Made by a program: the position numbers and the translations under genes. Shown here piece by piece: positions 9,674-46,690 of a DNA stretch of 64,000 bases. Origin of the DNA: Cyanidioschyzon merolae (Eukaryota); assembly GCA_000091205.1 (NCBI GenBank), contig AP006484.2; one strand, 5' to 3'. The notes beneath the pieces were generated by a model. It did no database searches. It saw only the letters and a list, made by a program, of their open reading frames with translations, and was not told the origin of the DNA. Position 1 is the first letter of the stretch. Each line of letters begins with the position of its first letter.

Positions 9674-12040
9674 ACAAGTCCAAGAAAATGCCGTGGGCAC
9701 GTGCTGTGCGGTTGCAGGTCGCCGGCGACGCCTCACAGGTGTCGCGTGAAAACGGAACACTGAACGAACTACCCTAAGTGTGCCTTGTGATGTCGGGGGA
9801 ATTTTCTCATGCGTACCGTCTTGACATTCGACGTGGAGGAGTCAAGAATTATTGTGGATGCGTACGTCGTTTTAGGATTCTGGATTGTCTTTTGGGAGCT
9901 GCTGTTTAGACTCTTGGATACTGACATTCGTACAATCAACGGTATCAAGACAGTTCGTGAAGCGCTCGAACAAGGATTCCTAACGTGCATGGAATCGCTG
10001 TCCAATGCATAGGGGCAGGCTTCTATGCTTCTCGCCTCCTTACGTATGGAACGTTCAAATCCCGGATTCTTCAAACTTCGATCGTTCTGGTGCAAGGCAA
10101 CGCCTGGGTACAGTGTTTGGTGCTACTGAAATGCCGAGGAGAAATACTCGACAGCATCCTTCGGCGACTTGATGGCAAGCTCTTGCGAAACGCTTCCCGT
10201 ACTTTGCACGCCAAAAAATGAGTTTCGTAACCAAGCCAAATCACCATATCTTTGTAGGCGGAAACAGAACAAGACTCGACAGCTGCATGGTACCGCGTTA
10301 GAGGTTCGCTACCAGAGACTCCGACTCTTCGGTTTGCGTAGACGGAGGTCCTAGATTTGGACCTGAATCCTAGCAGCAAGCTCTTTCAGCGCAAAGGTTG
10401 TGACTGCTTTGCGTGAAGGGATCGTGAACGGATCGAAGTTTCTCGACTTGCTCTCCAGCATGGATTTTGCTTCCAGTACTCGTCTCGTCATGGACAGCAT
10501 CGCATTCGATATATCTTCAATAGCCTAGAAGTGCGGATATCTGCGTGTTCGGCAGCCAATGTACTCACCGTGGACTTTGCCCCGCAGAAGCCCGCGATTC
10601 CTGTGCACGGCACTGGACCATGAAACGGTGGAGGGCATTCACGATAGCCCGGTGAACCGATCGAGTAGATGAACCGAGCGATACACCAAGCGTTTATGCT
10701 CCAGGAGCGGTCTTCAGACGAGGAAAAATAGGTAGTCATGGTGCGTTATGGTGCACTCCTAAGGAGATACCGCACCATAGCAAATAGTCGGCGCTATCAA
10801 GGGCGCTCCGATGCTGTAAACAAAGAGAATGAACATGGCAAGAAAAGTCGAGAATGCATTCGCTCATAGCCCTCCTGATCATGCTATGCGCGGACAACAG
10901 CCAGAGGCGACGACATGGTGTCATGAAGCCTGCCATCAACGTCCTCCAAGTGATGCAAACCGAACTGAAGAGACAGGAGACACCCACGAGATTCAAGCCG
11001 GAGGTACGAGAGCTCCGAAGAAAGCAGTCGCAGAAAAAAGATCGCAAAGGCTACCACGAGCACCAGCTGGTAAAAGCTGCAAACTTCACTATGTACACTC
11101 GAGTTCGCTAGGTGTGCGCCCGTCCCACTTTTATTCTACAAGTGTCATAAGCGCGCTTGGACTCAAGTATCCCGGAGAATACAGGACGCAAGATATGAAC
11201 CGAGTTCTATGGATTCCATCGAATCAGGAAAACTCCAGGTCTGTTCAGGCTCAACGATCTACCGGCACAGCGGACACTATAGCTTAACTCCTTTCCGCCG
11301 ATCCAAAAGCGTGCAGGAGACAACAACAACAACAACTAGAGCAACAACGCTACCCGACTTTCTATCCCTGGTGCCGTACGCTGCACTGCAGCGCTTTGAG
11401 CGGCGTTCCGTTCAGTGACGTTACCAAGCGCGTTTCGCACCTGCTTTCTTTCCGCTATCGTACTTGTCGGGTACGCTCATAACATTGACTAGGTGCACAT
11501 TGAACATACTCGGGTTCCCGCGGAACCCTTCGAAAGGCTTCGCTTTGAAGACAGCGTGCAAGCGAGCCGCAGCTCGAAGAACAGGATCCGTAGCTGCTCG
11601 AAGCGAGCACACCTAGTCCGCTATTCCGCTTAGGCTTGGATAGCTATCGAGTCGTCGTTCGCGTTCGGGTGGAGTCTGTGGGACCAGGAGACCTCCGGCG
11701 CTAGTTTAGGTCTGGTCTCGAACAGGTACTGTGCATATATTTGTCTTGGAGTCCGAATAAGCCGGTGTGTCGTACGACTTTAGAAACTCCGAGACCTACC
11801 ATTGTTGACGGGTGGGTGTACGGCGGCTGGTGCCTAGTTGTGCTTAGGAATCGTCAACAAGCGCATCGGAGGTCAAGTTTCTTGCACGCTGTCACAAGAC
11901 TCGCTGCCCAGGGGTCTCTTCACGGCACACGGCGGCTCGAAGGAGCGTTTCGTGAACCAGAGAGAACGCGGCTTCTGTGGCTGCGTTTTTAGAGACGCCT
12001 GCTCGCCGACTCTATTCCAAGTGACCCCGAGAGCACCGCT

Positions 12041-15000
12041 ATGGAGCCCGTTGAACACACAAACAGCAGCGAGGTATCCGCTGCCGCTAGAGCGACCCAA
12101 GATCACAACGACGAACGAGAGGGAGCACCAGTGAGCGGGGCGGTGGTTCCTGCGGAAGCTGATCCGCTATCCCATCTAGTGCAGGAACAGAGTGCCCTAC
12201 AAGCGCTGCACAAACGGGCGCCCCGAATCATGGACGACCCGGATTTCGAAGGGGAATCCCGTGACCCAGTGCTCCAGGTTGACAAAGATGACGAAGGTCC
12301 ACGACCAGCAGCCGCTGAGCCTACAACGCTCCAGCGTGTCGCAACCACGTCGGACGAAAGCATACTGGGAAACGCTTCACCGGCCAGCGAGCGCGGACTT
12401 GTTTCAGACACATTGCCACATGCAACAGATGCAGACGTGACCGATGAATGGGCTCGTCGCCGCAAACGTACGCGTTCGAGTCCAGAACTCGCCGAGGGTG
12501 ATATCGAACTCCTGCGTGAAGCCGGTGTTGTGATTCCAGAGCGACAGTTGCATCCAGGAGGTCGTCGGTCTCGCCGGCGTCGACGACTTCGCCAGGCCGC
12601 AGACCTGGAGATGACCTCTGAGAACGACGATGACGAAAACGACAAGATCGAGGCTTCCCCTGATACGACCTCCGTAGCACCGTTTGGCATGATTGGCGAC
12701 AGAGACGAAGCCGATAGAGCTGCAGGCGCTGTGGACGCTCAAAAGTTCACGTCTGTCGGAGAAAAGCAAGCGTCGTTGCCTGCTAGTCCTCATCAAGCAG
12801 CGAATGCCACGGTGGGTGCTTCAGGCCTGGGTGCCGGCATCGGCGGCACCGATGATCAGAATCTCGCAGATGAGGCGTCGATCGACCAAAACTCTGAAAT
12901 AGAGGAAGAAGAAATCGGCAGCGACGATGATGAGGATGATTTAGCCGACTTCATTGACTATGGTGATGGGGCAGCTGGGCAACGTCGCCGCCGCCTCGCC
13001 CGTGAACGAGCGAGAGCTGCTTTGCAAGCCTCACTCCGAGGCGGGCGCCTGTCCAGCGAACTGGATCCTTACGCTGCAGCACTGCTGCGAGAGCTCTTCG
13101 GTGATGCCGATTCACTTGAGAACTACCGCGGAGAGCCGCTTCTCTATCACGATGATCCCGAGCAGATTCGCAAATGGCTCCAGAGAATCGGCGTCAATGA
13201 TCCACGCGATATTGAGAACGTCTTGTCGCTGGAGTCGTGGGCAGTACCAGAGCCGTCGTCAGCGGAGGAGGATGCATCGACGGGTGCGGAAGCCTCCAAG
13301 AGCGCCGGACACGAGAGCCTCTCCGTCGAGCAGACAGAGCTGCTCGCGGAAATGTATGCAACGCCTCAGGATGATGCGATTCGTGCACTGGATTTGCCGG
13401 AGTACACCCAACTCTATCACTGCGGGCGGGATCAAGCGGGGAATCCACTCCCTCGCGAGCTCATGGACGAGAGCGATATTCGTTACGAGGCAGAGTGGAT
13501 CGTCACCAACGGACTCGTGGACCTGCTTCGGTCGAGTAGACAGGCGGCTCCAGAGTCATCGCTCGTGGATCAGGTCGCGCATTTGCTGCGCTTCCTGCAT
13601 CTGGAGCACCTGGACATCGCCTTTATCGCCATGTATCGACGAGATTACCTGGAACCCGATCTTCTGCCTCCGCTCGAGCGAGGCACTGGCGAGCAACAAG
13701 CTCCAGTGCTGGAGAGTCCGACACATTTCGTGGGCGACTGGACACGCCTCTGGCGAGTCCTCGACTGGGACCGATACTATTTCCAGTTCCTTCAGCAGAA
13801 GCGCCGCCTTATGGACGTTTATGAGGAACAGGGTGAAGAGGAGCTTTTGCAGCTGGCTACGGCAGCATTCCGCCGTGAGATGCTCCAGGATGTGGAAAAA
13901 TACGCGCGACTGCGTCGGGAGCTAGCTCACGGGGACAAGAATGGATCGGCATCAGCGTCAGCAGGTCGTGAAGAGGCTGCAAGTCCCGAGTCGCTGCGTC
14001 AGGTGGCAGCAGAAACTCTGCTGGCGCCCAGCACCGACGCCTACCAGCGACAGGAGCACCGCACCGCAGCTGCAGCTGCGGCGGAAGCGGCAAACGGCAG
14101 CATCCACCCTGAAGTCGGCCTTGATTCCGAAGCTGCTGGTACCGTCTCCGACGACGCAATGGATCAGTTGCAGCAAGCAACCGCTGCAGCTGCTTTGCGA
14201 CACGCGTCAGACGACGAAGAGCACCGGGATGCGGCACCTGTGCACTCGACCGAGACCCTAACGCCAACAATTGGGAATGCCGAGGCCATGCAGCCGCGAG
14301 CACGCGCGAAGAACAGCAACAGCAGTAGCAGCAACAGTCGTAGCGATTTGCAGCGTACCAACGCTGAGATAGCGACTTCAGCGGAACAACCGGGAACACT
14401 GCAGCCTCGACAGGTGCACCCGCAAGCCCCTGGTCGTCGCAGGGCTGGTCGCACTCCGTCGCGTCGTGATGCGCTTCATGTGGCGATATCCTGGGTTGTT
14501 GCACACCAGCTCGATGTAGAGGCGCTCTATGGCATCAAGGCTGCCGATTTGGCCTCCAACGTGCTCTCGGGTGGCAGTCTCATCACCGAACCTGCTGATC
14601 ATCCAAACAAGCCGTCGCTCGAAGAACTGCTTCGATCTACTGATGTTACCGAGAGCACTGCTGCCGTCGGTATCGAACGGTATCTGCGCTACGTTCGTCA
14701 GGTAGCTGGGGCGCTTTATGCGGCACACCCGCGCCTTCGGCACTTTACCCGGACGCGTCTGCGCGAAAAGGCGCACCTCACCGTGAAACCGAGTGCGCGT
14801 GCCCTCCAAGACCTCGATATACTGGATCCTTTGCGTCCGTACTGTTCAGTGGAAGCGCTACCGGTTGCAGCCCTGGACCCAGCAGAAATGGCTCGTTTCA
14901 TTTACGCTGAACGCCTTGGCCTGGTGGAGCACATGGAATGCTCGCTAGCGGCGCCTGATGAAGCGGAGCTCGAGTCCATCCTGGAACGCGCGCTCCTCAG

Positions 15001-18382: not shown

Positions 18383-20162
18383 GGAGTGTGGAAAAGCGGG
18401 TTCCAGGGCTCGGCGTAGGCGGTTACCCCGGTGCTTATCCAAAGCGTACAGTGAGATAGGTTTTTATTCTAGCTGCGATGCGAGCATCGATTCCATAGCA
18501 CAATAGCATTGCGTGGAAGCACGGGGCGAACTGTATCCATGGGAGCCTCTCGAACCGGAACCTGGTGTACTATGCTATGGATGCTAGCCTTGGATTCGTC
18601 TAGCTTTCAACGCATATCTCAACGCGCATGGCATTGGTACGTTCCAGGCCGATGGTATGGATCCTGGCCTTGGATGTGTGTATCGCTTTTACCATAGGAA
18701 TAGAAACTTTTTGCGCAAGTACTTGCAGTCCGACGTTCTCGTGCATGAGCGACACCCGTTTCAGATTCAAATGGAGCACTGAACTGTTCGGTGTGTTCCA
18801 GTATTTCGATAATTTGCCAGTTATCTTCCGAGGTACAATCGCGACGCAGCAAGTGCATCAATATCGGGGACCAACGGCTTCATATGTCGTTTCTGGCAAT
18901 CCAGGCGCCATTTCGGAGTGACTCATTCGACGCTCCGTCACTGGAATTTATTGCTTCTCCGGAATCAAGCGAAATAGCGACGCCATGGAGAAAAGGTTCG
19001 TAAAGTAACAGGTATCATGATGCAATGAATAGGGGCCTGGCTTCCACGCTTCCCCTTGTGTGCACAATGCCGAAAGTATGTGTGCTTCAACTTTCCGATC
19101 TTTGTATTCAATGACAACGGGGATGCATGGCAACACAGATTGCCGAATAAGCGACACGTAAGCCTCGACGTCGTGCCTTGGCGACTTCCGCAAAAATTCA
19201 TACGGATCATTCACCGAACATGTCACGTTAAATCATGGATTCCGTTTGACTGACACATGCTCCTTTCATGTACGAAACGCCAATTCATTGCGGCAGGGTA
19301 CCTCACACACGAGGTGTGCGCTCAGAGGACCGAGCGCCATCCATTTGCATCGCAAGGTATCTTGGACTCCGACTCTAGTCATCGTAGCGATCGCTTCGAG
19401 TGGAGGTTGGATCGACGCCTGGCAGGACGGCTGCGTCGACGCATCCTCTTTGCTTGCACGGGACGCCTCCTGGGATATTCCCTCGGGCACTTGATTCATC
19501 ATGGACGACTTCACGGCGTTCTGCAAATTCTCTGTCGAATACGACACTGTGCGCTTGTACAAGCAGCGCACAGTGTACGCTCCGAGCGGATCACCCAGAA
19601 GAGGCCCGTCATCATCGAGTACAACACGCCGTGCGGAAACAGAGGCGAGCATCGACGAGGAGCCCTCTGTACCCGTCATGGGCGTGTACCGAGCAATAAA
19701 GCAAGAGCTCACGTGCAAAGTGACGGCGCTCAGCGTAGAACGTGTGGTGGAAATAGCTGTACAATGAATCGCAGTCACGTATAATACCGCTGTGAGAAGC
19801 GCATCGAAGCTGTCGACAAACAACATGAAAATGACATGCAAAGCATACATCGCTACCTGCGCCTCTTCATGGAATGCATCGACAGGAGCCGAACGTACCA
19901 GAAACCAGTATGGAACGCCATCATCCATATCCTCCTTCGACCGCTGTCAACAGACCTATCAGGCCAAAAGACACGCGCTTCGTTCAAACCGAAGATATGG
20001 AAAGAGAGGGCGCGTTCGAACGAACGCTGTCACACGAGTATCCCACCAAACCTATTATCGATGACATTGGAATCAGACCCAAAATTTAAACCCTTGTTGG
20101 CGTACCTGAGTTGCATTCTATGCTATTTCACGGGGCTCGATCCCCGCCAGGCCACGCAGTTG

Positions 20163-20620: not shown

Positions 20621-22573
20621 TTAGCGATGACTACGCGTACCAAGGCTCATCTTGCCCGCAAAGAGGTGATGCGGTTTGCGCGTACCGATGAAACGATCAG
20701 ACTCGCCTTGGCGGTGCTCTCGTCCGCTAAACGCGCGACGCAGCGTCCGCTGAACGAGTTTCTGGGCGTGGCGAGCCTGCACAACATCACGCAGACCAGC
20801 AGGAACCAGGGACTGATCGCTTACAGCTCGAGTTCGATAGACAACTGGTGCAGAGTGAGCTGCTTTTCTGGTCTGCTGCTTGGTGGTGCTTGGGTCGACA
20901 GCGCGCCCCCATGGTCGCTTTGCAACCGCCTGCGACGTCTTGCGTACCTTGAGAAGCGCTTTGCGCGATAGCTTAGGTCGTTGGGTGCGGTCTCGGGCAG
21001 CTTGCTGCTGACGAAGCCGTCGCTGGTTGCGAGCTTTCTCCCGAATCAGCGCGACATCGGTGTCTGACGGTTGATCAACCGGGACGTCTGCACGCGGCTC
21101 GTCACCGACGGCGTCTGAAAGCATACTCTGACGCATCGTTTCCTCTTGCTCAAGGGCAAGCAGCCTCTGATGAATCTCCGGATCAACATAGTCCGCTATG
21201 TTCTTGCCGTCTACGATCTCCGGAATGTAGTCATAGCGCCATGCTGGGTCTGTTAGGTCGTAGTGCTTGCGCCAGTCCATGCTGTAGACGCCTGCACCTC
21301 CGTGGTCGCGTTCCAGTTCACGCTCCGTCTTCCGGCCTGCTCGGCTTGTCGACAAGGTGCAGGCCAGTTCAGGTGCGGTGTTTTGGTTAAGTGCATCGTC
21401 CGCATCGCGCAGAGCCTGGCGGCGTTCGAGGACTGAAGCGGGAATCTGCGGTGTGCGAACGAGCTTCGGCTCCGCGACGTGCAGCCGGTTCAGTACAGAG
21501 TCCGTTTGTCTGCCGCTAACTTTGAGAGAGACACGCAGCGCTAAAAGTCGTTCACAAGCGCGATTACGAACCGCGAACACCGATGCATATCCGTCGTCGC
21601 CCATCGTGGATGCCGTCATCAGCTCTGCGCCCACTTGTTCGGCGGTTTCCCGTATCGCCGTCCACGTTGCCGGATCGAGTTGCTGTTCCCAGCCAAGATC
21701 CGTCTTATTGCATACCACGAAAAGAGGCTTGTCAGCGAACAGCGGTTGAAGGGAACGAAGCAAGGCCAGTTGCTGGGCTATGGCGTAGCCACAGGTCTCT
21801 GACGGGTCCACGAAGAACAGAATCGCCGCCTGGAGATGTGCCAGCGCTGTAATCGACTGCATCTCGATGGTGTTGCGCTCATCGAGGGCGTGATCCAAAA
21901 GACCAGGTGTGTCGATGACCTGCCAACGCAGGTACTGGTAATCCATATGACCGACAAACAGGGACTTTGTGGTGAACGCATACGGTTGGACGTCGACTTT
22001 GGCGTTGGTGACGCAGTTCAAGAACGATGACTTGCCAACGTTCGGATAGCCCGCAATCAGCAGCGTTCGCGTCATAGGGTCGATACTAGGTAAGCGCGCC
22101 ATATGTTGGCGCACTTGCTCCAGATACGCTAACGCTGGGCGAAGGTGTTTCACCGTTGTGCACATTCGACCCAGAGCGGCTCGTTTGAGGCACTTGGCAC
22201 GGTAGAGAGAGTCTGCGTATTTGAGTTGGCGCACGTAGTCGCGTGCAAAGCTGTCCACAAGGCTGCGTATCCGACTTACTTGACCAAGGGCCAGTTTGTA
22301 GTGATCTCGGTCATACAGCACATTCAAAATATCCGCATAAAAGGGATGTAGTTCCTCTAAAATCGGAAAGTCGCTGAGGATCTTTGTCAGGCGCTCATGA
22401 AAACATGACTGAGCATAGCGCACCTTGCGTATGTAGAACGTCCGAATCCGAGTGATCGCATACCCTGGGTGCACAACGGTGGGGGTTTTGCGCTGTGTCT
22501 GAGAGAGTACGATATCGATGAGGTCCAGTGCCTCCGGTACCACCTGGATGTGCTTTAGACCCCCTACAGTCAT
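20621..22573 (-). CDS. NOG1: nucleolar GTP-binding protein 1 (NOG1)
   Basis: N-terminus LDLIDIVLSQTQRKTPTVVHPGYAITRIRTFYIRKV, then the G-domain IAGYPNVGKSSFLNCVT...FTTKSLFVGHMDYQYLRWQVIDTPGLLDH with a basic C-terminal tail. The track start at 22732 is GTG. The first ATG is at 22573 (MTVGGLKHIQ), giving 650 aa. Confidence 0.85.
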   Translation of the reverse strand: MTVGGLKHIQVVPEALDLIDIVLSQTQRKTPTVVHPGYAITRIRTFYIRKVRYAQSCFHERLTKILSDFPILEELHPFYADILNVLYDRDHYKLALGQVSRIRSLVDSFARDYVRQLKYADSLYRAKCLKRAALGRMCTTVKHLRPALAYLEQVRQHMARLPSIDPMTRTLLIAGYPNVGKSSFLNCVTNAKVDVQPYAFTTKSLFVGHMDYQYLRWQVIDTPGLLDHALDERNTIEMQSITALAHLQAAILFFVDPSETCGYAIAQQLALLRSLQPLFADKPLFVVCNKTDLGWEQQLDPATWTAIRETAEQVGAELMTASTMGDDGYASVFAVRNRACERLLALRVSLKVSGRQTDSVLNRLHVAEPKLVRTPQIPASVLERRQALRDADDALNQNTAPELACTLSTSRAGRKTERELERDHGGAGVYSMDWRKHYDLTDPAWRYDYIPEIVDGKNIADYVDPEIHQRLLALEQEETMRQSMLSDAVGDEPRADVPVDQPSDTDVALIREKARNQRRLRQQQAARDRTQRPKLSRKALLKVRKTSQAVAKRPWGRAVDPSTTKQQTRKAAHSAPVVYRTRAVSDQSLVPAGLRDVVQARHAQKLVQRTLRRAFSGREHRQGESDRFIGTRKPHHLFAGKMSLGTRSHR

Positions 22574-22959
22574 GGTGTCGTCGTAAGCAAATACCAATTG
22601 GAAGCGAGCTCTTCGTGTGAAGTGAGGGCAATGGTACCCAGGGAGTACTGGCTGCTCTCGAACGCCGCGTAGTGTAGGTACGCTGTGAACGGGTACGATA
22701 GACGTGTCCCCTGGAGCCGCCTCGTTGTGCACTCACGAGGAAACAGGTGACCCGATCGCTTCGCTCGATATCGGTATTTGTATGCAGTGGAGGTCCCTTG
22801 TTCAAAAAATTCGACACCACACCGTCCCTGGTGCACTGCTTTTGTCAGGTACGTTTCCTGAACTCGGCCGGCGACATCGGTATATCCGCAGCCGACGGAG
22901 AGTGCGCTGCGGACGGCGGCGGCTGCTGCTGCTGCGGGCGGCGCGCCCCAGACGCGAAA

Positions 22960-24612
22960 GCGGGGCAGGTGCCTGGAGGCACTGATCCTCGACACGGGAA
23001 CTCGAAGCGAAGCACGGGGGAACTGTTTTCCGTATTGTGGAAAGATCACCTTGTAGGCAGGTGCCTGGAGGCACTGATCCTCGACACGGGAACTCGAAGC
23101 GAAGCACGGGGAAACTGTTTTCCGTATTGTGGAAAGATCACCTTATAGGCAGGTGCCTGGAGGCACTGATCCTCGACACGGGAACTCGAAGCGAAGCACG
23201 GGGGACCTATTTTCCGTATTGTGGAAAGATCACCTTGTAGGCAGGTGCCTGGAGGCACTGATCCACTACAGGGGAACTCGAAGCGAAGCACGGGGAAACT
23301 GTTTTCCGTATTGTGGAAAGATCACCTTGTAGGCAGGTGCCTGGAGGCACTGATCCTCGACACGGGAACTCGAAGCGAAGCACGGGGAAACTGTTTTCCG
23401 TATTGTGGAAAGATCACCTTGTAGGCAGACTGGAGGCAATGATCCTCGACACGGGAACTCGAAGCGAAGCACGGGGAAACTGTTTTCCGTATTGTGGAAA
23501 GATCACCTTATAGGCAGGTGCCTGGAGGCACTGATCCTCGACACGGGAACTCGAAGCGAAGCACGGGGAAACTGTTTTCCGTATTGTGGAAAGATCACCT
23601 TGTAGGCAGGTGCCTGGAGGCACTGATCCTCGACACGGGAACTCGAAGCGAAGCACGGGGGAACTGTTTTCCGTATTGTGGAAAGATCACCTTGTAGGCA
23701 GGTGCCTGGAGGCACTGATCCTCGACACGGGAACTCGAAGCGAAGCACGGGGAAACTGTTTTCCGTATTGTGGAAAGATCACCTTATAGGCAGGTGCCTG
23801 GAGGCACTGATCCTCGACACGGGAACTCGAAGCGAAGCACGGGGGACCTATTTTCCGTATTGTGGAAAGATCACCTTGTAGGCAGGTGCCTGGAGGCACT
23901 GATCCACTACAGGGGAACTCGAAGCGAAGCACGGGGAAACTGTTTTCCGTATTGTGGAAAGATCACCTTGTAGGCAGGTGCCTGGAGGCACTGATCCTCG
24001 ACACGGGAACTCGAAGCGAAGCACGGGGGAACTGTTTTCCGTATTGTGGAAAGATCACCTTGTAGGCAGGTGCCTGGAGGCACTGATCCTCGACACGGGA
24101 ACTCGAAGCGAAGCACGGGGAAACTGTTTTCCGTATTGTGGAAAGATCACCTTGTAGGCAGGTGCCTGGAGGCACTGATCCTCGACACGGGAACTCGAAG
24201 CGAAGCACGGGGAAACTGTTTTCCGTATTGTGGAAAGATCACCTTATAGGCAGGTGCCTGGAGGCACTGATCCTCGACAGGGGAACTCGAAGCGAAGCAC
24301 GGGGGAACTGTTTTCCGTATTGTGGAAAGATCACCTTATAGGCAGGTGCCTGGAGGCACTGATCCTCGACACGGGAACTCGAAGCGAAGCACGAACGTGC
24401 AACAAGGTCGTTCTATCCTTATGGTAAGCGTTGCACGGGGGAACTGTTTTCCGTATTGTGGAAAGATCACCTTGTAGGCAGACTGGAGGCAATGATCCTC
24501 GACACGGGAACTCGAAGCGAGGCACGAACTTACAACAATTTTGTTTCCATCCTTATGGTAAGCGAAGCACAGGGAACTATTTTCCGTATTGTGGAAAGAT
24601 CACCTGGTAGGC
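22960..24612. repeat. tandem satellite array, ~92-bp monomer, ~17-18 units, with a 7-unit (~641 bp) higher-order repeat
   Basis: The monomer ggcaggtgcctggaggcactgatcctcgacacgggaactcgaagcgaagcacggggaaactgttttccgtattgtggaaagatcaccttgta repeats with a 92-bp period (89 bp once). Units at 23037/23129/23221 are identical to those at 23678/23770/23862, giving the higher-order repeat. The last two units carry a ~37-bp insertion (aacgtgcaacaaggtcgttctatccttatggtaagcg). The many 67-aa MERSP... ORFs in the track are artefacts of this array. Confidence 0.9.
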
Positions 24613-25140
24613 AGAAGGTTTCGTGAGCTAGACGAGTCTGCTAGGCTGGTGCTTCACTCTCTAGACAGTGGCAGGTGCTGTGGCGAGCTCTGAGCAGCTC
24701 GTCTGCAACGCAATTCATTCTGGGACTAGGTGCAGTTAGGCTGAGTCTGGGCTTCGCACTGGTCGTGGTTGACTCCTAGCTTATCGATTCGTGCTGTCGC
24801 AGGCAGTCGGTCTGCCTGTACACTTTACATGCTCCCAGAATAGCTATGTACTCCGACTCCTTGTCGAATGGAGCAGGCATCGAGCCGAAACCCCGCCCCC
24901 CCACCAGTGGTGTGGCAAAGCCGTTCTGGCCCCGTGCTACGTACGCACTACCAGCACAGGCGCTACTGCGGGTGCTCATGGCAAGTACTCGGCGCACGAT
25001 AGACCGTACGAAACAACCAGTATATTCGAGAGGAACTAGGGGTCATGGAACCTGGAGGCCGGATGCTGCATGACGAACTTTTTTTCGAATGCTAATATCC
25101 ATCCCACAGCCTAGGAACCATGGCCAATGTAAATGCTTTT
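24580..25140. repeat. dispersed ~560-bp non-coding repeat, copy A (its 5' end is the progenitor of the 92-bp satellite)
   Basis: ~75% identical to 34826-35390. Shared blocks include cgtctgcaacgcaattcattctgggactagg, tggcaaagccgttctggcc, aaccagtatattcgagaggaac and gaatgctaatatccatcccacagcctaggaaccatggccaatg. Both copies start with the ttttccgtattgtggaaagatcacct satellite motif and end near a ccatgg pair. Confidence 0.7.
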
Positions 25141-27911
25141 TTCAGAGAGAAACACGCGCCCAATGGAGCGATCATTACGTTTCAAAATAGAAAACAATTC
25201 TTTCATGGGATTCAACCACGGAGCGCACGGAGGAATAAAAAGCAGCTCTGCCCTTGATAGATTCGGCAAAAGCTCGAACGCGAGTCGAATGGTGAAATAC
25301 CACGTTGTCCTATAGAGGGATGTCGCCAGACGCCAGCGGAAAAGTCTTCAATGATTCGGCAAAGTCGTTGGTGCCATCGTATGAATCCTCTGTACCAGCG
25401 AAACCGCGGCCGGCAAATGAATCCACTACCGCTAGGACAGATGATGTCGTCAGAGTTCTCTTCGAGATCCATCGCGCACACAACGGGCTTCCTGCTCTGC
25501 GAGTAGTCACATGCGCTCCAAAGGTTTCACTTAACGGAGTTCTCATCGACTGAAAAAACCACCCCAAGTCCCAGTGCTTCATACCGATCGCTGAGTTCCA
25601 GGAATTCTGTTGTTGCGATTTCAGTGGAAGATGACTGTGCATAAACTAGGACTTGTTTCTGCGACTTTATGCCAGTGTTTCAGGATCACACGAATAAGAC
25701 GTTGAGAAGTATAGACGCACATGACGAATGATATCTTTGCTTTTGCTTTCCGTTAAGTGATCAAAGATTCGCCTTTGACGATGGACCGCAAGCACGCCTT
25801 GAGACGATCGGGTTTTCGCGCGGGGCATATAGTCGTGTTTCTTTCAGGGTTCCGCAGCCATCAGAGTATTGTGTTATGACTGACCTGATTCAGAAATGCA
25901 GTCCTTGTTGCGCTCTTCAGTAAAGCATATATCCTGCAGGCAATTCGACTACGATCTGTCCGGCACGTTGCATCGTGCTTTCGATCAGCTGCTATACCCC
26001 GCAGCGGAGGTTGCACCAACATTGAGTTGAGAGCCCATAAGCGAGCGCTGCGATACCTGGTGATTCATTGATGTGCGTCGGTGTAATTTTTTATCAAAAA
26101 GTGTGTGCCATAAAACCAGGTCATCTATGGGTGTGCGGGCATAGCTTCTGGCCTATCGCAACGCGCCGCTAGTCTTGGTGATGCACTGTTATGTGTTGCG
26201 ATGTCCTTTCATTAGTCAGCATGCTTCGTGGAAACCAGGATGGCTGTGAAGAACTTCACCGTGTGCACGCCCTGATGTCTGGTATGTAGTGTAGCGGGTC
26301 GTTTGGCGCAGCCACGTATGCACACGGAAACATCAGAACGCAGCTCCATACGATTACAGCTCCCGCTTTTTAGAATCAGCGTCGTGTCTGGCGATGCTGC
26401 ACAGCGCTATGTGCACAAGGCGGGGCAGTCGCACAGTAACATCGAAAGGTTTGCCTTGTGCCTTGAAGGACTCCGCACGTTGTGTTGCGCTGTTGTAATG
26501 CGCGAGACTGGGGTCCGCGTGCGTCTGTTCTCGACGGATTCAAGGCAGCGCGCAAGCATGAGCGCAAGGCGTCTTCCGCGTCTTCCGCGTGCTTCTGGGA
26601 GACTGCGCGCGCTAGCCTGTTCGTATGGACGAGGCGGATCGTAGACCAAGCCGAACAGCAATGGCAGGTTTTTTCAGAGCTCTCCCGTACTCGGAATCGT
26701 GCGCCCTTCGCGTCTCAGAGGCGTATCTGGTCGATACGCAGCGCCTGCTAAACGGTATAAAACTCGGGTTCGAATCCGTCCATGATTATCGGATGCAGCG
26801 CACGCTGCACATCAGTGGCGTTTCGCGGAGCCCCAGAAGAGCGCCTAGCTGCGTTGCGCCGGGCGAACGATGCTAGATGTTTGCCGCCCAGCGCGTTATT
26901 GCCTAATCTGGGCATCGTTGACCGCAAAAGGGTCATTCACCGGGGATACTTGCTACCTCGTGATATCTGTGATGACTTTTAGCAGATGCCCAGCGGAGCC
27001 AACATCTCGATATAGCGATCTGGGCATTACAAATCACAAAAGCCTAAAGTTCGACATGCAGCAGACAACCCCCCGGGTCGATTAAGATAGCGAGCTCTCA
27101 TACGAACGGGTTGTACGGCTGGATCAACTCGGGTTTCTCCAGATGAGCAAAACAGACTAGAGCGAAATGGCATGGGATCTGAGAGACATCCACTTGCATT
27201 CAAAGAGGGCACTTGTCTCGCATGATGGGCCGAGCCCTCGAATCATGCTTCCAAACCAAAAACGATATCTACTGAACGGCATCCAAATTTCGCAAGAGAG
27301 CTCGTTTCGCTACGAAAAGTAGAGCAAAACACCTCTGTGGTCGGTGAAAAACGCCACCAGCTCGATATGGCTGTAAACTGATGCAATCCATGGCCTGCTG
27401 GAGAGACACCGCCCCGCTTCAATTCATCTGCCCGATACTGACTCGGAACGAGTGTTACGGAAGAAAATTCGATTGAGCCGAAGAAGCAACACCTCAAACA
27501 ATCGCCAAAGAAGCTCCAGTGCGATCATTGGCGATGGAACAATGAAGATAAGAACATGACTGAGGCTCGCTAGTATCCTGTACCAACTTACACCACTTTT
27601 CTGGTGCAAAGAGATCGATGCATCATGCTTGAGACGCAGCTACTGCTACCTACCATAGCTGCTGCCGCAGCGAGCACTGCACCCTCTTATGGGACCGCAC
27701 CTAGTTCGACTCGAGCGCGATTCACTGAGCTACAGTGCCACTCGCATAGAGTCACCCACAGGTATTATCAAGTCTCTGCGCGTTCCGTTGATTAACTCGA
27801 AAACAACGCCACCTCAGCGGTCCCATTCACCAGGCTCCACTCGCAGCGGTTTATCCGAGTGTCGGCGCCAGCTCGCTGTACGCTGAAAGATCCTCGACGC
27901 GCACATACCGC

Positions 27912-28166
27912 CTACGACCGTTGCTGTCGCTCTATCATAGCCTTGCTAACAACTCCCATGGACTCAATGTACCTATCGACACACTTGGCTAAACAGGTCT
28001 GCTCCCCGGAGGTCAGCGTAGCGCTTGGTTTGGTCACGCACTTCTCAAAGCACTTTTCCGTCACTCGTTGTACGAGATCCTGAAACGCCTGCCGCAGCAT
28101 CTCATTTCGAACACGATCTTCAAGCTCCGCCCGCTGTGATGGCGTCAGTTGATCTATTTTATCCAT
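27912..28166 (-). CDS. small Tim family protein (Tim8/Tim9/Tim10/Tim13-type mitochondrial intermembrane-space chaperone)
   Basis: ATG at 28166. The 84-aa product has a twin Cx3C motif (KCFEKC ... CLAKC) with spacing characteristic of small Tims. It is the only convincing gene in the 25.2-31.7 kb stretch. Confidence 0.6.
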   Translation of the reverse strand: MDKIDQLTPSQRAELEDRVRNEMLRQAFQDLVQRVTEKCFEKCVTKPSATLTSGEQTCLAKCVDRYIESMGVVSKAMIERQQRS

Positions 28167-31100
28167 AGGTAACGGTGGTAAACGTCCAGTGAAGCCGGAA
28201 TGCGGCGGTTACCTCGTTGTGTGCAACTGCAGGCACCCAAGGCGACGTAAAGCTATTGAAGTGCATCGGCGGCGCCTGTGGTGCCGGCGCCCGGTGCGAC
28301 GGCACCATGGATGCGCTGTCGGAGGTTTGTATGCTCGGGGTCACGGGGGATGCCCTGCTCTTTTCTCCAAAAGTATTGTGGATCGAGTAAAATGCCGGTG
28401 ACTGGCCCGCAGCACGTATGCAGCGCTTATACGGCTGCCAGGATAGAACTGCAACGAGTTCACTGACTCAACGAGGGCGAACACGCGCAAGTTTGCGTTA
28501 TTTCATATCGTCAACTGCACCAGAACTTGGGGGTTGGTTTTTCGGTCTCCTGTGTCGCGTCTCCAACTTTAAATACGCTGGTCTCTCGTTTCGCTCCGAT
28601 TTCGTGAGCATCAGTCAGAGGATCGTGATAACAGGGCCAAATTCTCGTTCATAGGATTTCCGGTTGGCATAGACACGTGATAGGCGCAGGCGAAAGTTTC
28701 GATCGAATCTTCATTGGCCATGCTCACCTATTTGTTTGCGGCATCGGCGTACGCTTTGCAGCGATCACACCCGACTATGGTCAGATGCTGCCTTGTCTCC
28801 AGCGTGCTTCCTCGTACGAGTACTGCCCTCCGGCGCTTGAACTGTTGCTGCATCGCTCTGTACACGCACTAGACGAGTACAGAAGACTCCCCGTCGATGC
28901 CCTCGACCGTTTTCGCGTCTGGTGCCGTACCCGAAGATCACGAGCTTCGTCAGTGGCGATGCCCCCGACGAGTACTCTGTATGCGTCATATGCGAGTGCG
29001 CACTGTTCCATGCCATTGAAGATTTGTGGATTGCGGTGTTCGCCATGGTGGTAGGGATTTGGAAGGAAAATGCAGGTTGGAGAACTTGCCGAGAACTATC
29101 GATCCGGTGGCGTTCTCTTCATGGAAACCTGTGAAGCTTTCCCCATTGGAAGCCGTCTCCGCTATGTGTAGAGTACGAATCCATGAACACTTTTCATGCA
29201 AACAGAAGACAGGGTAGCCTCTCTGGGAGCATATCCCCTGAATTGTATCGTGCTGCGGTTGAATCCGCCGATTCATCGACGGGCACACAGAGAGAAGCAC
29301 CTGTCTTTCGACCCGCGTCGAGTATTTGACATGCGCTTGGGAAGAAGTCGTCAAGGAAGGTCGTCGAGATTCTCTCCTCATCGAAGCAGGGACGCGCATA
29401 GCTGTGCTCCTCGGTTACCTTGAAACAGAAAGATCGAGTTCTAGGAAACTGTATGAATTGAGCACGCGATATTTACGGAACGGAGAAGAGTCAAGGCTTG
29501 TTGTTCTGCATTGCGTTAAAATATCGGTTATTATAAGAGCCCTTGTACGAATCTGTCGCATGTCACTGTGATGATGGTGAGGTGACGAATTCTACTGGGA
29601 CTTTGTCGAAGGGGCCGTCCCGGAGAAAACAACCGCCGAGAATCGTAAACCAAGGTATGCATCCAAGAACGCCAATTCCCGCACTTCGAAATTAGAGGCG
29701 CAATATCAACACAAGTTCGCAGAGAAAATCGACAGATAGAAACAGAACGAGCAGTTCAGTTCGCGATGGTAGTTCGACACCATTGTGGAGCGCAGCAGCG
29801 TATCGCGCTCGTTCGACTGTACCTGGACGAGTTCGGATAATGTGCAGTCGGGCACACGAACCAGCCCGGGCAGAACTTGGTCCAGGCTCACCTGGGATGC
29901 TGGAGTGTCCTGAGGCGCAACTGGGTATGCCCGTTTGCCGAAACGATTCATTGTCGTTCGTTGGCACTCGTTTAGAGAGACACCCAGCTGCTAGACATGT
30001 GTGCACCATGCGTCCTTGGTGCGTGCGAGCGACGAATATCCCAATGTCGTCGGATCCCGTGGATGACAACCACGCAGCATCGACTCGTTACTCGTTCGAC
30101 GCACTAGTTGATGCCGCGGGCGTGCCGCCATCGCGTGCTATAGCGCGTCCTGCGCCAAAGGCGAATACCGCACCACGTGACTTGTCGGTCATGTTCTTTG
30201 CCACTTCATTGATGAAGCCCGCAAATCTATGCATCTTGCCTCCATGCAACCGATACCGTTGGCGGCCCCAGCGAGGTCTCTCGGAACGCTGTCGAAAATC
30301 GTTCGCACGAGCCATGTGGACGCTTCTGCTCTGTCCAGTGCTGGGCGCTACGGAATCGATGTTGGCACTGTCACGCCATTTGTTGGTATATACGCTGGCG
30401 TCCATAATGCTCGACTACCCATAAACGCGAACAATGGAGAAATCAAGCCATATTACATATTCTGTCTGAGCATCAATTACCCTGTCATATGAAGGTTCTA
30501 TCGAAAATTTCGAGAGGCATCTGCTCAGCTGGTAGCCCTGCGTCCGGATCGGCTACAGCAAGTCGTTTGACGAGGTGCATCGGGGCGAGAGCGGTGCCTC
30601 GCGAGACTTTGTCGCGTAAGGAGCTATGCGATATCTGTTGGCGTCCTGAATCTATCGATTAGCCGGAGACGAACTTGTTGGCTAGTGATCTATGCGCGTA
30701 AAAACCGCGTTTGCCGATAGTGACAATGCCGTACACTGGATAGAAGCTGGGAGCATGGGCTGGTACGAAGACCAGGTCCAGCCAAATTCCAGCTGTATGC
30801 TCCCTGTTTCTTGTTCAGTCATGGAACGCGACATTGCTAACGAGCAGGACAGACGAATTTGGTAAGGAGGAGCTTGGCAGAGAGACTCGATGAACGACGC
30901 GTCGTCGAGCAATCCTAACCGTTCGGCGATTTGGGGCCGGCCTCACGCTTGACTCCCCGCTGGGCCTGAAGCCGTTGTCGCACGTGCTTGACTCCTCTTT
31001 ACGGCCGGAGGTCTGCCCCTACTTCATCAACGATGCACAGACCTGCCAGTCTTCCCGAATCAAGACTCATCGAATGAGACGAACACCATCCAAACCTGTA

Positions 31101-31747
31101 CTGACAAAAATTCGCTTCTCAGTACGAAATCAATCGTGTCTTGTGCAACGCATGGCGCTCTCCCATACAGGCGTGCTTTGCCTCAACGTCCGCCCGTGTC
31201 CCTTCGTCACCGTTCGTATCGAGGGCATAGAGACGTCTCATTCGACGGCATCGTGAACATTGTCTCTTACACATCATATTCAGTAGAATACCTTTCGAAG
31301 GAGATCGTCGTCCATTTCGTCAGAGTTTGACCGGTTCTCCTCTAGGATGCGTGACGTTCAGAGCCAGCGTCGACGACGAGCAGCGTCATTCGACGTTGCT
31401 ATGCCCGTTGAAATACTGACAAGTAACGCCATTCTATATATGACAGCGATGACACCTTAGAGCCTTTCCAGGACCTCTGTCCAGACATCATCGCCACCAC
31501 CATCATCAGATATTCTATTCATAGAATACCTAGAAGAAAAAAAAACAGCGTGCTCCCGCAGGTATTCCAGCATGGACCGCTCCCGCACTGTAACGGACTC
31601 GCGGAGGGCGGCAGCGCGCGCACTTTGCGCGCCCCCGATGTGCTGTCCGTTTCGCCGCATCCGCCGGTGCCAGGCGCAGAGAAAAACGTTTCGCCTAGCG
31701 GAACTCGTACGTAGAAGCAGCGGAAGCGCGGCCCAGCGGCGAGCGTC

Positions 31748-32482: not shown

Positions 32483-33488
32483 GCTTCGCATATGGTATAT
32501 CAGATGGCGGTGATGCAGAGGACGCATCGAAATCCTGAATAGATTTCGTTAACGACGGTTGTCTGGGTGCCCTGATTCCGAGGACAAGGCGCTCAAAGGG
32601 GATTTTATCGAAGCATGTTGACACTCTGGAGCCAGTTACGAGAGCCAGCGCACCAGTGACATTCAGAATCGCAGCCTAGTACCTGTTCATGGACGCACAG
32701 TGCCGTGCGTCCAAAAACAAGTGTCACGTGAGCGTCGACATCGATGCCGAAAGCAGACGCTTATCCTTCGAGTCGTTGATGCCCTGTGCCGGCTGCAGCG
32801 ATCGTCGTAGCGCTGCGGATGTGTTGCGAGGCGAGCCCAGTACCCTGGTTGCGCATATGCTCCAGTGCATCAGGTATGATGCTGGCAGGCGGTACATGCT
32901 CGCTGCAGATACACAGGTTGGTGAGTGCGCGACGGACCGACGCTCTGACAATCACTTTCACGTACGTATTGCTTTCGAAGCAGTCCGCTGCGCGACATCG
33001 ATGGTCCCGGTGTCGTGGATGCTGATAGCGCCCACTGGGAAGACGCTGCATCTCTCGAACCGCAATGCGCCGAGAGAAAGTTCTTGAAAGCGGAGATACG
33101 GGCGCATAAGAGACGGCGTGGTCTGCTTGGATAAGCATACATGGATGCTGGCCGGGGTGCCACCTGCTGAACACCAGGATGGTAGAGCTCTTTTCTGACG
33201 ATGCCTCTGCTGCTCCTGCTTCTGCTGGAAAAGAGAGCATAGGCCGCCTGTTCGTCTACTGCACGACCTGTTGCATACGTTCGCGATTTGCCTAGCGCCA
33301 GCACAGGTCGTGTAAAGTTCCATAACGGGCGGATAGCCTCCCATTCGGTTGCCGGCCTGTTTGGATGTTATGGATGGCGGCATGCGATCGGCTTGTGGGA
33401 GCTCGCAGCACTTGGCTTTTGGCTCGTCCAACGCAAGGCTCAACATACAATCCACCTAGAGCTCTGGATCGTCCAGAAAAGCTACGAG

Positions 33489-34015
33489 TCAGGGAGGCGG
33501 TGACTTGTCGCCTATGTTTGCAGAAGAAGGTCGATCTGCGGTGCGCGTAGCACAGCACTCGATATGAAACTTTGTGCTTTTATCCGTTCCCGCTCCGTTT
33601 GGATACGGAGCGCGCACGACGCAGAGCTCTTTGCGAGCACGCCGAGCCGCCTCATGCGCTCCAAATAGTTTCCACGAAACGGGTCGTTCACACGAGCCGT
33701 CTATGACGGCAAAGAACGCATGTCCACTGCTACTACCTAAGTAAGCATACCTGGTTCTGAAATAATCTCCGTGAAAGCACACGAGAACGTCTTGGTGGTT
33801 TTGATACCCGGAAATACGTCTCAGCGATCGCCGATGTCCACACAGCATCGGCTGCGTCTCTTCCGGAACGTGCCTGGAGAGTCGGTATGAGCCCAGGAGA
33901 TGTAGCTTTTGTGGCGGTGCGGCAACAGAGTACATAAATATACACCCACCCGCAGCAACCTCACAGCATTTTTCGACCCGCAGCCTGTTACTGGTTTCAG
34001 CCTGTCCGAGTACAC
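33489..34015 (-). pseudogene. possible metallophosphoesterase fragment, frameshifted
   Basis: Two overlapping minus-strand ORFs in different frames. One ends CCVDIGDR (GDxxDR-like) and the other has LCGHRRS (GHxH-like) and DYFRTRYAYLGSS. The match to calcineurin-like phosphoesterases is weak. It abuts the miniature Fanzor-element copy. Confidence 0.15.
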
Positions 34016-34039
34016 TTCTAGCCTGAGAGAGGCTGCGTT

Positions 34040-34700
34040 ACAAAGATAGATTGCCTCGGCTCCTCGGGTCTTGTTTCAGCACCGCTCATCTTCTGATATT
34101 CATGGCGGCGTTGAAGTCTCAGTTCACAAACTCGATGCGTTTCTTACCTCTGGTTGAACTCACCAATGCAAGGAGTCCTATAGCTCGTGCCATGTGTGCC
34201 CCTACAGCCTCGTCAGCGCCTCGCCGCGTAAACCCATTGCTCGCTTATCTCCTGTCTTGTTCTTCTTCTTCTTCTTCGTCGCTTGCGCTTCATCGCGTGA
34301 CAGTCAGAGAGAAGGGGATTTTGTTCGTTCCTCCCGGGCAGCCGGCGATGGCGGCCCTCGAGGCTCCTCGGCTTCCTTGTCCACCAGTTTCGTTTTTAGT
34401 TTTGAAAACGAACGCATTTTAAACGCATCTGCTATAAACCGCGAAGGAGTACTTGAATACACGAATCTGAAGGCCGGAACGCATTTGGGATCAAACATCA
34501 TATTTTGCTCCGGCTTCAACGCAAATACAACTTGCACGGTAGAGCAGCGGGCTTGATGACGCCATGCTTTGCGCTTGTCGTGCATTGAGCACGTCACCGG
34601 CAACAGTGCACATTCCGAATGCAACATCGCTAGTTTTCTGGCAAGTCAACGAGTAATCAGGATCGCGTTTCCCTTCAACAGCAACATGCGCGTCGTGTCT
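34040..34700 (-). mobile_element. internally deleted (~660 bp) non-autonomous derivative of the Fanzor/TnpB-bearing element at 58.9-61.6 kb
   Basis: 34040-34215 is homologous to 58914-59085, the 3' end of the nuclease ORF plus ~18 bp. It encodes a degraded ...EFVN*DFNAAMNI with an in-frame stop. 34215-34700 is homologous to 61250-61625, the N-terminal KEEKK-coding start plus the upstream AT-rich region and right terminus. Shared strings include gatcgcgtttcccttcaacagcaacatgcgcgtcgtgtctcat vs gatcacgtttcccttcaacggcggcgcgcgcgtcgtgtctcat. About 2.2 kb of internal coding sequence is absent. Confidence 0.6.
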
Positions 34701-34825
34701 CATGCCCGACAGCTATGGAGGTACGGATCTCGGCTGCGCTATAGAAAAAAGAACAGAAACGATCCACTCCGTGGCAACTAGATCAAAAGTTCTTTCGCCT
34801 CTACTATAAGCGTTGAAACGGGAAC

Positions 34826-35390
34826 AGCTTTCCGTATTTTGCAAAGTTCACCTTCTCGGCGGAAAGTCCTGCAGGTCGGACAAGACTACTAGGCTAATAC
34901 GCTGCACTCTACGGAGCGAAGGGTACTGTAGTGAGATCTGGGCAGCCCGTCTGCAACCCAGTTTATTCTGGGAATAGGGTCTGGTATGCTTCGTCTGGGC
35001 ATCGTTTTGGTCGTAGTGCTCTTCTTGCATATCGCTTCGCGTTGTCGCGGGCAGCAAGTCTGTCTGCACAGCTTGCAAGCTCCCGGAATTACACTGAATC
35101 CCGATTCTGTGACTAGTGCACCACACCTCGCGCAGACGCCATCAGTGGTATAGCAAAGCCGTTCTGTCTCCGTGCAGCATCCGCACAGGCGGTATAAGCG
35201 CTATTGTGAGTGCTCAGATCACGTTAGGTGCACAGTGGAACGTGCAAAATAACCAGTATATCCGAGCGGAAGTACGAATAATGGAACTTGGACTTGTTGG
35301 GCAGCCTGCTTGACACTTTTTCGAACGCCAGCATCCATCCCGCTACGCTGGATCCATGGTCCATGGAAACGTTTTGGCAAAGAAAGAAAT
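34826..35390. repeat. dispersed ~560-bp non-coding repeat, copy B
   Basis: Homologous to 24580-25140. It begins with one satellite-like unit (aacgggaacagctttccgtattttgcaaagttcacctt). It lies ~100 bp from the miniature Fanzor-element copy. Confidence 0.7.
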
Positions 35391-35607
35391 TCGCCCACCG
35401 GCGGCATTTGCCGTAGCTGGAGCAGTGCTGGAGCGCTGGGTCGGTGACCACTGCTTGACAAAGTGTCAACGTGCTTCCTTGTTATCTTTATTACTCGCCT
35501 GAAATCCAAAGTGTCTACGTGCGTACGTGCTAGCTGGTTGCGCGGTCGCTAGTTTCATGCTGCGCTTGGACAGAGGCTCAGGATAAATAATCGAGGCGTT
35601 CATAGAA

Positions 35608-36921: not shown

Positions 36922-37025
36922 TACGAGTGCTGCGCTACTACCACTGAGCTACGAAGGCCCGGCGCTGCGTCTTTGGCAGCTGCTGGGTGAGCCTCCGGCG
37001 TGGATCGAACACGCGACCTCAGCAT
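36922..37025 (-). tRNA. circularly permuted tRNA-Thr(CGU) gene (3' half upstream of 5' half, split in anticodon loop 37/38)
   Basis: Minus strand reads leader gctggtgagacgcgcc, then the 3' half a38-TGCTG-AGGTC-GCGTG-TTCGATC-CACGC-CGGAGGC-t73, then a 31-nt linker, then the 5' half GCCTTCG-TA-GCTC-AGTGGTAG-TAGC-G-CAGCA-CTCGTA(37), then trailer tcccagc and TTTTT. The acceptor stem has 7 bp with one G·U. The anticodon stem CAGCA/TGCTG pairs 5/5. The T-arm GCGTG/CACGC carries the TTCGATC loop. The anticodon loop joins across the halves as C-U-C-G-U-A-A. Leader gctgg pairs with trailer ccagc, which is BHB-like. Confidence 0.6.
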
Positions 37026-46219: not shown

Positions 46220-46690
46220 TCATCCGTACGCCCATATCATTGTACTTGGCCTATAGAAACTATGCATCTCCATAAAAGTCTGCATCCCAATCGCGAGACA
46301 GGAGCAGAGCATGCGCTTTGTACGCCCGTATCATTGTACTTGGCCTATAGAAACTATGCATCTCGATAAAAGTCTGCATCCCAATCGCGAGACAGGAGCA
46401 GAGCATGCGCTTTGTACGCCCGTATCATTGTACTTGGCCTATAGAAACTATGCATCTCGATAAAAGTCTGCATCCCAATCGCGAGACAGGAGCAGAGCAT
46501 GCGCTTTGTACGCCCGTATCATTGTACTTGGCCTATAGAAACTATGCATCTCGATAAAAGTCTGCATCCCAATCGCGAGACAGGAGCAGAGCATGCGCTT
46601 TGTACGCCCGTATCATTGTACTTGGCCTATAGAAACTATGCATCTCCATAAAAGTCTGCATCACAATCGCGAGACAGGAGCAGAGCAAAC
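46220..46690. repeat. tandem satellite, ~94-bp monomer x ~5
   Basis: tacgcccgtatcattgtacttggcctatagaaactatgcatctcgataaaagtctgcatcccaatcgcgagacaggagcagagcatgcgctttg repeats with a 94-bp period. The terminal units are diverged. It is unrelated in sequence to the 92-bp satellite. Confidence 0.85.

Follow-up and report, generated by a model that had tools for sequence, protein, structure and literature searches.

A locus-specific tandem array of 92-bp units between Nog1 and Tim13 on chromosome 2 of Cyanidioschyzon merolae

Background

A tandem array of about 1.65 kb stands next to a segment that occurs twice in the same region of chromosome 2 of Cyanidioschyzon merolae, and the question it raises is what kind of repeat it is and how it came to lie there. 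A first-pass annotation, made from the letters of the sequence, described it as a satellite with a 7-monomer higher-order repeat that had been born from the end of a dispersed element. Here we analyse the array together with its surroundings in the window, by which we mean the whole stretch of 64,000 nucleotides under study, in environmental contigs and in two related species. The reading that we prefer, with a probability of roughly 0.75, is that of a locus-specific, non-coding minisatellite whose history comprises a duplication at the border of the neighbouring segment (copy Y1 below), a deletion, an expansion and one block copy.

The array and its genomic setting

The chromosome that hosts the array is chromosome 2 of C. 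merolae 10D, which is 457,013 bp long (PMC1955436, Table 1): four window proteins, namely Nog1 (BAM78943), Tim13 (BAM78944), APS kinase (BAM78946) and S-adenosylhomocysteine hydrolase (BAM78951), are exact matches to proteins of strain 10D. Nog1 carries the locus tag CMB146C (PMC4263083) and TIM13 the tag CMB148C (PMC4206486). No protein accession exists for the tag between them, CMB147, which may denote an annotated transcript. The features that define the locus are:

20621..22573, minus strand: Nog1 (CMB146C, BAM78943; Pfam and exact protein match, tag from PMC4263083)
22964..24609, unstranded: tandem array of 17 units, 1,646 bp (Tandem Repeats Finder, unit parsing, unit distance matrix)
27912..28166, minus strand: Tim13 (CMB148C, BAM78944; exact protein match, tag from PMC4206486), the far boundary of the Nog1-Tim13 spacer

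The array is thus housed in the 5.34-kb spacer between the two genes, upstream of Nog1, whose start codon is 390 bp away from the first unit. Tandem Repeats Finder detects two periods, one of 92 bp at 22964-24393, with 15.6 copies, 96% matches and a score of 2671, and one of 133 bp at 24290-24615. Parsed by hand, with a cut at every GGCAG, the array resolves into fourteen units of 92 bp, one of 89 bp (23424-23512), which has 3 bp missing close to its start, and two longer units at the right edge, unit 16 with 136 bp (24341-24476) and unit 17 with 133 bp (24477-24609); the right flank opens with GGCAGA, the initial bases of a unit. According to the unit distance matrix, units 1-16 show 0-9 differences per 92 aligned positions, and edge unit 17 is the most diverged (10-14 differences to the rest). 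Across units and environmental haplotypes the 3' half of the unit does not vary, and two near-palindromes, GTGCCTGGAGGCAC and GGAAACTGTTTTCC, are found within the units. The array is far beyond chance expectation. The earlier count of some 17-18 tandem 92-bp units described a genuine array, of 17 units by Tandem Repeats Finder and parsing.

Occurrence elsewhere and natural polymorphism

The exact 22-base core of the monomer, TTTCCGTATTNTGNAAAGNTCACCT, was used to scan JGI metagenome contigs, a pattern that diverged copies would escape. It was found at nine loci, five of which correspond to the array and four to a paralogous head at 34.8 kb of the window (see below), and none of the nine maps outside these two places. 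Within the reach of this exact-pattern scan of JGI metagenome contigs, whose assemblies are incomplete, the monomer belongs to one locus.

Populations with about 99% identity to the window are represented in the scanned metagenomes, and among their contigs the array occurs in at least four unit orders. One long spanning contig reads 92,92,92,92,136,133 and another 92,92,136,89,133; a third, in which both flanks are joined, has 136,89,133 only, and a further contig entering from the left has 92,92,92,89. Five other contigs stop within the array or at its edge. These contigs are short-read assemblies, in which tandem arrays are collapsed, so the copy numbers are to be read as minimum values and assembly error could account for some of the apparent polymorphism; the differing unit orders in independent assemblies nevertheless indicate real sequence polymorphism. 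The units vary in their 5' variant (GGTGCC or a 3-bp-shorter form) and in the presence or absence of a 44-bp segment, and all four combinations of the two exist, giving units of 92, 136, 89 and 133 bp, which points to intra-unit exchange.

The neighbouring 0.6-kb segment

To the right, the array merges into a segment of which the window has two copies:

24559..25162, plus strand: Y1, segment copy 1 (blastn); its initial ~51 bp are the end of unit 17
34807..35397, plus strand: Y2, segment copy 2; it starts with a single unit-like head at 34807-34859

The copies lie 10.2 kb apart in the 64-kb window and in the same orientation, with 68.5% identity over 612 columns (blastn, E 2e-53), a divergence of 31%, and 210 bp separate the end of Y2 from the MRP-L20-like gene (35608-36705), upstream of which it lies. 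The match between them begins within the last unit of the array. The start of Y2 (34807-34863) corresponds to the last ~55 bp of the unit, with 79-82% identity over 49-58 bp, and after this unit-like head Y2 has GGCGGAAAG where the flank of the array has GGCAGAAGG. Compared with the sequence further upstream of Y2, the 5' part of unit 17 shows no significant homology (z 0.5), and that of unit 16 shows marginal homology only (z 2.6). No similarity exists between the Y1 and Y2 places in the left flank of the array or in the sequence to the right of the segment. In four metagenome contigs the head of Y2 is single-copy as well.

Because the array abuts Y1 while Y2 bears a single unit-like head, the comparison of the two copies places the growth of the array at the 5' border of Y1, where it took place long after the segment itself was duplicated: Y1 and Y2 differ by 31%, units 1-16 by 0-9 of 92 positions, and the amplification is therefore much younger than the segment duplication. 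The first-pass annotation had let the array run into a dispersed repeat of ~560 bp, had seen a satellite-like unit at the beginning of the other copy, and had derived the satellite from the terminal ~92 bp of this element, which it held to be probably non-autonomous. The array does abut a segment with a second copy, that copy does start with a monomer-like stretch, and growth at the 5' border of the segment agrees with our own reading. However, the word 'dispersed' rests on two copies, and it is only the last ~55 bp of the unit that are clearly present and homologous at Y2. The element itself finds no support: Y1 and Y2 have neither terminal inverted repeats in common nor a poly-A tail or a consistent coding frame, and they are two copies of 68% identity. 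A local duplication over a distance of 10 kb explains the segment as well as a mobile element does.

In the 58.7-62.8 kb spacer, no further copy of the segment was found. The possibility that Y1 and the DNA downstream of it represent a decayed duplicate of the MRP-L20-like gene was considered and rejected (tblastn, best E 0.12; the DNA past the segment is dissimilar).

Repeated sequence of another kind is present in the window in the form of a dispersed family of ORF-bearing blocks with 63-71% DNA identity, at ~6-212, 9961-11284, 19162-19946, 28632-29414, 44967-45934, 49893-50896 and 55382-55958. It includes a 220-aa ORF on the minus strand (19266-19928) with paralogous pieces at 50232-50471 and 28627-29235 and no Pfam match. 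The 0.6-kb segment is not among these weakly similar blocks. A 3.2-kb interspersed element with 253 copies has been reported in C. merolae (PMC1955436), to which the block family may be related.

The 44-bp segment of the long units

The two units at the right edge owe their extra length of 44 bp (136-92; 133-89) to a segment that the other units lack:

24393..24436, unstranded: 44-bp segment of unit 16, preceded by AAGCGAAGCAC and terminating in AAGCGTTGCAC, with GTGCAAC/GTTGCAC inside
24526..24570 (boundaries approximate), unstranded: diverged copy of the extra segment in edge unit 17

AAGCGAAGCAC and AAGCGTTGCAC are 11-bp direct repeats around the segment that match at 9 of 11 positions, and the inverted repeat GTGCAAC/GTTGCAC forms a hairpin in the predicted fold. 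If the segment is taken out of unit 16, what remains equals units 1, 8 and 12, base for base. The segment of unit 16 also aligns collinearly with the sequence immediately upstream of the paralogous head (z 3.0; 13 of 2000 shuffles score as high), where the corresponding upstream part of the short unit gives no alignment and the segment of unit 17 no similarity. Long units are present in all environmental haplotypes that reach the right edge of the array.

The polarity of this length difference decides which unit came first. We infer that the long unit is probably the older one and the 92-bp unit its deletion derivative, given that the segment occurs in the most diverged edge unit and in all right-edge haplotypes, that unit 16 without it equals units 1, 8 and 12, that it is flanked by direct repeats and that it has a weak alignment upstream of the paralogous head. 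Each of these lines is individually weak, and the paralog alignment (p ~0.007) concerns unit 16 only.

It is less probable by a wide measure, and on balance unlikely, that the 92-bp unit was the original, and that an insertion of 44 bp occurred a single time close to the right edge and was duplicated afterwards. Such an insertion would readily account for the restriction of the segment to two of the 17 units, which are neighbours, and would be at ease with a segment in unit 17 that has no similarity to the paralog. However, no pair of units in the array is more diverged than these two carriers, and the segment should therefore predate the coalescence of the 92-bp units. The 11-bp direct repeats suit a deletion, whereas a unique insert of 33 bp together with an 11-bp duplication would match no known insertion mechanism. 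The collinearity of unit 16 with the paralog upstream sequence speaks against an insertion too, as do the right-edge haplotypes, all with long units that are in one case separated by an 89-bp unit. The preferred polarity, an ancestral long unit, bears on two statements of the first-pass annotation. A 37-bp insertion was said to be common to the last two units; the shared extra segment is real, its length is 44 bp, and a deletion is the favoured polarity. The stepwise growth that this insertion was thought to document is not supported, since the direct repeats, the most diverged carrier, the right-edge haplotypes and the paralog alignment all point to an ancestral long unit.

Related species and other tandem arrays

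The region was compared with that of Cyanidiococcus yangmingshanensis (GCA_026122185.1) and of a second related species. The gene order SPT6, Nog1, Tim13, APS kinase, MRP-L20-like, hydrolase is kept in both relatives, with a Pet191 gene call beside Nog1 in Cyanidiococcus only. The spacers differ considerably in length: between Nog1 and Tim13 they measure 1.54 and 1.74 kb in the relatives versus 5.34 kb in C. merolae, and between APS kinase and the MRP-L20-like gene 1.25 and 1.28 kb versus 3.1 kb. Both relatives align with the window in coding regions and one tRNA gene only. Neither the array nor the 0.6-kb segment is present in the sequences of the two relatives that were compared, and both therefore arose within the C. 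merolae lineage. An alignment of the 136-bp unit with the Nog1-Tim13 spacer of Cyanidiococcus exceeds most shuffles (9 of 3000 reach the score); it was discounted as a sign of homology because the spacers of the two relatives fail to align with each other.

The enlargement extends to three neighbouring intergenic spacers of C. merolae (22574-27911, 28167-31747 and 32483-35607), which have 3.1-5.3 kb versus 0.9-1.7 kb in the two relatives. This region of chromosome 2 has gained several kb of lineage-specific non-coding DNA.

Tandem duplications of comparable unit length are present in the second relative, at 11478-11659 and 14343-14523 of its sequence. One of this pair is a duplication of 83 bp x 2.2 situated 338 bp upstream of the start codon of its own Nog1, and the other a duplication of 97 bp x 1.9 downstream of Nog1. 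In its position relative to Nog1 the 83-bp duplication is near that of the C. merolae array; in sequence the two are unrelated.

The window itself has two further arrays. The first, of 94 bp x 4.9 (46226-46687, 98% matches), has its end 345 bp upstream of the start codon of SAHH (47032) and comprises two to four fewer copies in environmental contigs about 99% identical to the window. The second, with a period of 75/150 bp (59723-60170, 71-77% matches), is located in the 4.1-kb spacer after a Myb gene and overlaps ORFs on both strands, which have no Pfam match; the same spacer shares short blocks with the 34-kb spacer (34067-34193/58942-59072 and 34656-34703/61554-61601). A relationship of the 92-bp unit to the 94-bp or 75-bp arrays was rejected, as no sequence link exists: the motif ACAAGGTCGTT..ATCC, common to the 92-bp and 75-bp units, does not exceed chance (54 of 1000 shuffles score as high). 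Arrays with units of 75-97 bp are not rare: three lie in the 64-kb window, and a 20-kb stretch of the second relative has two short ones. For this genome, the two further arrays (94-bp and 75-bp units) do not bear out the remark that satellites are scarce in very compact algal genomes.

Another peculiarity of the region is a circularly permuted tRNA-Thr(CGU) gene on the minus strand (36922-37025), in which the 3' half (37025-36990) stands upstream of the 5' half (36958-36922). ARAGORN does not detect it in the native sequence and detects it once the halves are swapped. The block is 85-86% identical in the two relatives, above the flanking coding sequence, and gives in Rfam a weak Y-RNA-like match only. 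Permuted tRNA genes are a known peculiarity of C. merolae, reportedly described by Soma et al. in 2007.

Coding potential, RNA and function

The array contains no ORF of 100 aa or more. All its reading frames close within 91 codons and 92 bp is not divisible by 3, and a coding repeat was rejected on these grounds. At E up to 1 the array has no match in Rfam, and the unit, folded on both strands, has an energy like that of shuffles (z -0.41 and 0.07), which speaks against a known or structured RNA and against a cluster of tandem non-coding RNA genes such as those for snoRNAs. A weak Rfam match to GlsR13 (C/D-box snoRNA) at 27017-27111, minus strand, with 22 bits versus a gathering value of 100 and E 0.23, is probably due to chance.

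Most likely, the array has no function of its own. We saw no sign of one, and a neutral minisatellite, kept up by slippage, unequal exchange and conversion, would be the simplest assumption. In yeast, promoter tandem repeats are known whose copy number modulates expression, and a comparable role would make the array a promoter-proximal cis-regulatory or chromatin element that tunes Nog1, or else part of a transcript (CMB147). Several observations would be in line with such a role: Nog1 is an essential gene and the array begins 390 bp upstream of its ATG, the 94-bp array ends at a similar place before the ATG of SAHH (345 bp), and the unrelated 83-bp x 2.2 duplication of the second relative lies 338 bp upstream of its Nog1; the units contain the near-palindromes GTGCCTGGAGGCAC and GGAAACTGTTTTCC and an invariant 3' half, also across haplotypes; and there is the gap in the protein tags at CMB147. 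Yet Cyanidiococcus and the second relative do without the array, their spacers of 1.5-1.7 kb being sufficient, the invariance within the unit is explained by homogenisation alone, and three of five arrays near start codons are not statistically meaningful. We therefore regard a regulatory or transcribed array as improbable. We would offer no better odds for the wider proposition that promoter-proximal DNA of Cyanidiales is a hotspot for the duplication of 75-100-bp units, with arrays that tune the adjacent gene. Such a hotspot would fit the fact that two lineages have independent arrays, without sequence relationship, 338-390 bp upstream of Nog1, as well as the SAHH array with its variable copy number.

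The 641-bp offset

Returning to the preferred reading of a non-coding minisatellite, there remains the long-range order within the array, which concerns two blocks:

22964..23428, unstranded: 5-unit block, copy 1 (offset-641 identity, unit distance matrix)
23605..24069, unstranded: 5-unit block, copy 2 (offset-641 identity, unit distance matrix)

The blocks are identical save for one mismatch at 23388, and their offset of 641 bp corresponds to the 89-bp unit together with six units of 92 bp. The distance matrix shows no difference between units 1-4 and units 8-11 and a single base between units 5 and 12; beyond the block, units 6 and 13 show six differences and units 7 and 14 one. Pairs at lag 7 have a mean of 1.25 differences, four of the eight being identical, compared to about 3.2 at most other lags. 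This structure exists at lag 7 only and is confined to units 1-5 versus 8-12. The 641-bp period is present only ~1.7 times, and it does not appear in the Tandem Repeats Finder report on the array. Since the period runs ~1.7 times and the match is limited to these five units, the lag-7 identity is one block copied once, by unequal exchange or conversion seven units out of register, that is, a single event and no repeating super-unit. The three-monomer block that had been seen to recur 641 bp downstream was therefore correctly recognised, if understated, as it is five units long; the 7-monomer higher-order repeat built upon it reduces to this one copy.

A true satellite with such a higher-order repeat, derived from the terminus of a non-autonomous transposable element and maybe marking a centromere-adjacent or subtelomeric domain, is hardly credible: the lag-7 identity of units 1-5 with 8-12, the repeated segment next to the array, whose other copy has a unit-like head, and the tags 146-148, which suggest a place far out on the right arm if tag order follows the chromosome, would be in its favour, but it is contradicted by ~1.7 periods in which units 6-7 mismatch 13-14, by an array of 1.65 kb at a single locus, by a two-copy segment without transposon features, by the centromere of chromosome 2, mapped to 212.6-213.5 kb by CENH3 ChIP-qPCR (PMC3744952), and by the lack of the telomere repeat AATGGGGGG in the 64-kb window. 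The nearest chromosome end is at least 39 kb away from the array. Given this position of the centromere and an array between CMB146C and CMB148C, a centromeric role is very unlikely. Nor is there support for the term 'satellite', if it is to mean a family spread through the genome or over the centromeres, as in the JGI metagenome contigs the core of the monomer was found at the array and at one paralogous head only.

A probable history of the locus

The minisatellite probably originated from an ancestral segment of ~133-136 bp at the 5' border of Y1, bounded by the microhomology GGCAG...GGCAG. This segment would have been duplicated in tandem through replication slippage or unequal sister-chromatid exchange. 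A slipped-strand deletion between the 11-bp direct repeats would then have removed the hairpin-forming 44-bp piece and given rise to the 92-bp unit, which would have expanded and become part-homogenised by unequal exchange and gene conversion, leaving older long units at the right edge. Finally, a single recent event, an exchange or conversion with a shift of seven units, would have copied the 5-unit block and thereby created the apparent 641-bp super-period.

Our search of the accessible literature found no paper on non-telomeric minisatellites in C. merolae; the Nog1-Tim13 array locus is probably undescribed, although the class to which it belongs is well known and the locus is ordinary within it. 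In practice it is of modest use. Both the 92-bp array and the array of 94-bp units at 46.2 kb vary and could serve as markers to type C. merolae strains and hot-spring populations, and the locus provides a small example of a start at microhomology, of a change in unit length by deletion between direct repeats and of a duplicated block that is easily taken for a higher-order repeat. The array very probably has no bearing on the centromere biology of C. merolae.

Comparison with known systems

Tandem arrays that were born from parts of MITEs, Helitrons or SINEs have been described in bivalves and Drosophila. The array resembles these transposable-element-derived satellites in that its unit is continuous and partly homologous with the edge of a sequence that is single-copy elsewhere, here the head of Y2. 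Unlike in those systems, the source segment, of which two copies were found, has no transposon hallmarks in either Y1 or Y2.

With satellites that have higher-order repeats, such as primate alpha satellite, the array shares a block of variant monomers that recurs at a fixed multi-monomer distance. However, higher-order repeats are defined by a block that is repeated many times and by a block identity well above monomer identity. The block of the array recurs once, and no contrast between the monomer and the block level exists because the monomers are already about 96% alike. The array measures 1.65 kb in contrast to many kilobases to megabases of alpha satellite, and it is situated at a single locus, very probably away from the centromere mapped by CENH3.

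The closest likeness is to minisatellites or VNTRs, such as human MS32 and CEB1 and the intergenic ones of yeast, that is, to head-to-tail arrays of ~10-100-bp units, 0.5-30 kb in total, that are locus-specific and vary between alleles in unit number and order. In comparison to typical minisatellites, the unit, with its 92 bp, reaches the upper limit of the usual range, and the array has no G-rich, strand-biased core motif. In other respects the agreement is close: 17 head-to-tail units of 89-136 bp form a kilobase-sized, non-coding array with a unit of about 100 bp; the nine loci with the monomer core in the JGI metagenome contigs are consistent with a single locus; and unit number and order vary among short-read contigs, in which copy numbers are lower bounds. 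Variant units are interspersed, unit order depends on the haplotype, and older diverged units persist at the edge, an anatomy that fits growth via slippage, unequal exchange and conversion.
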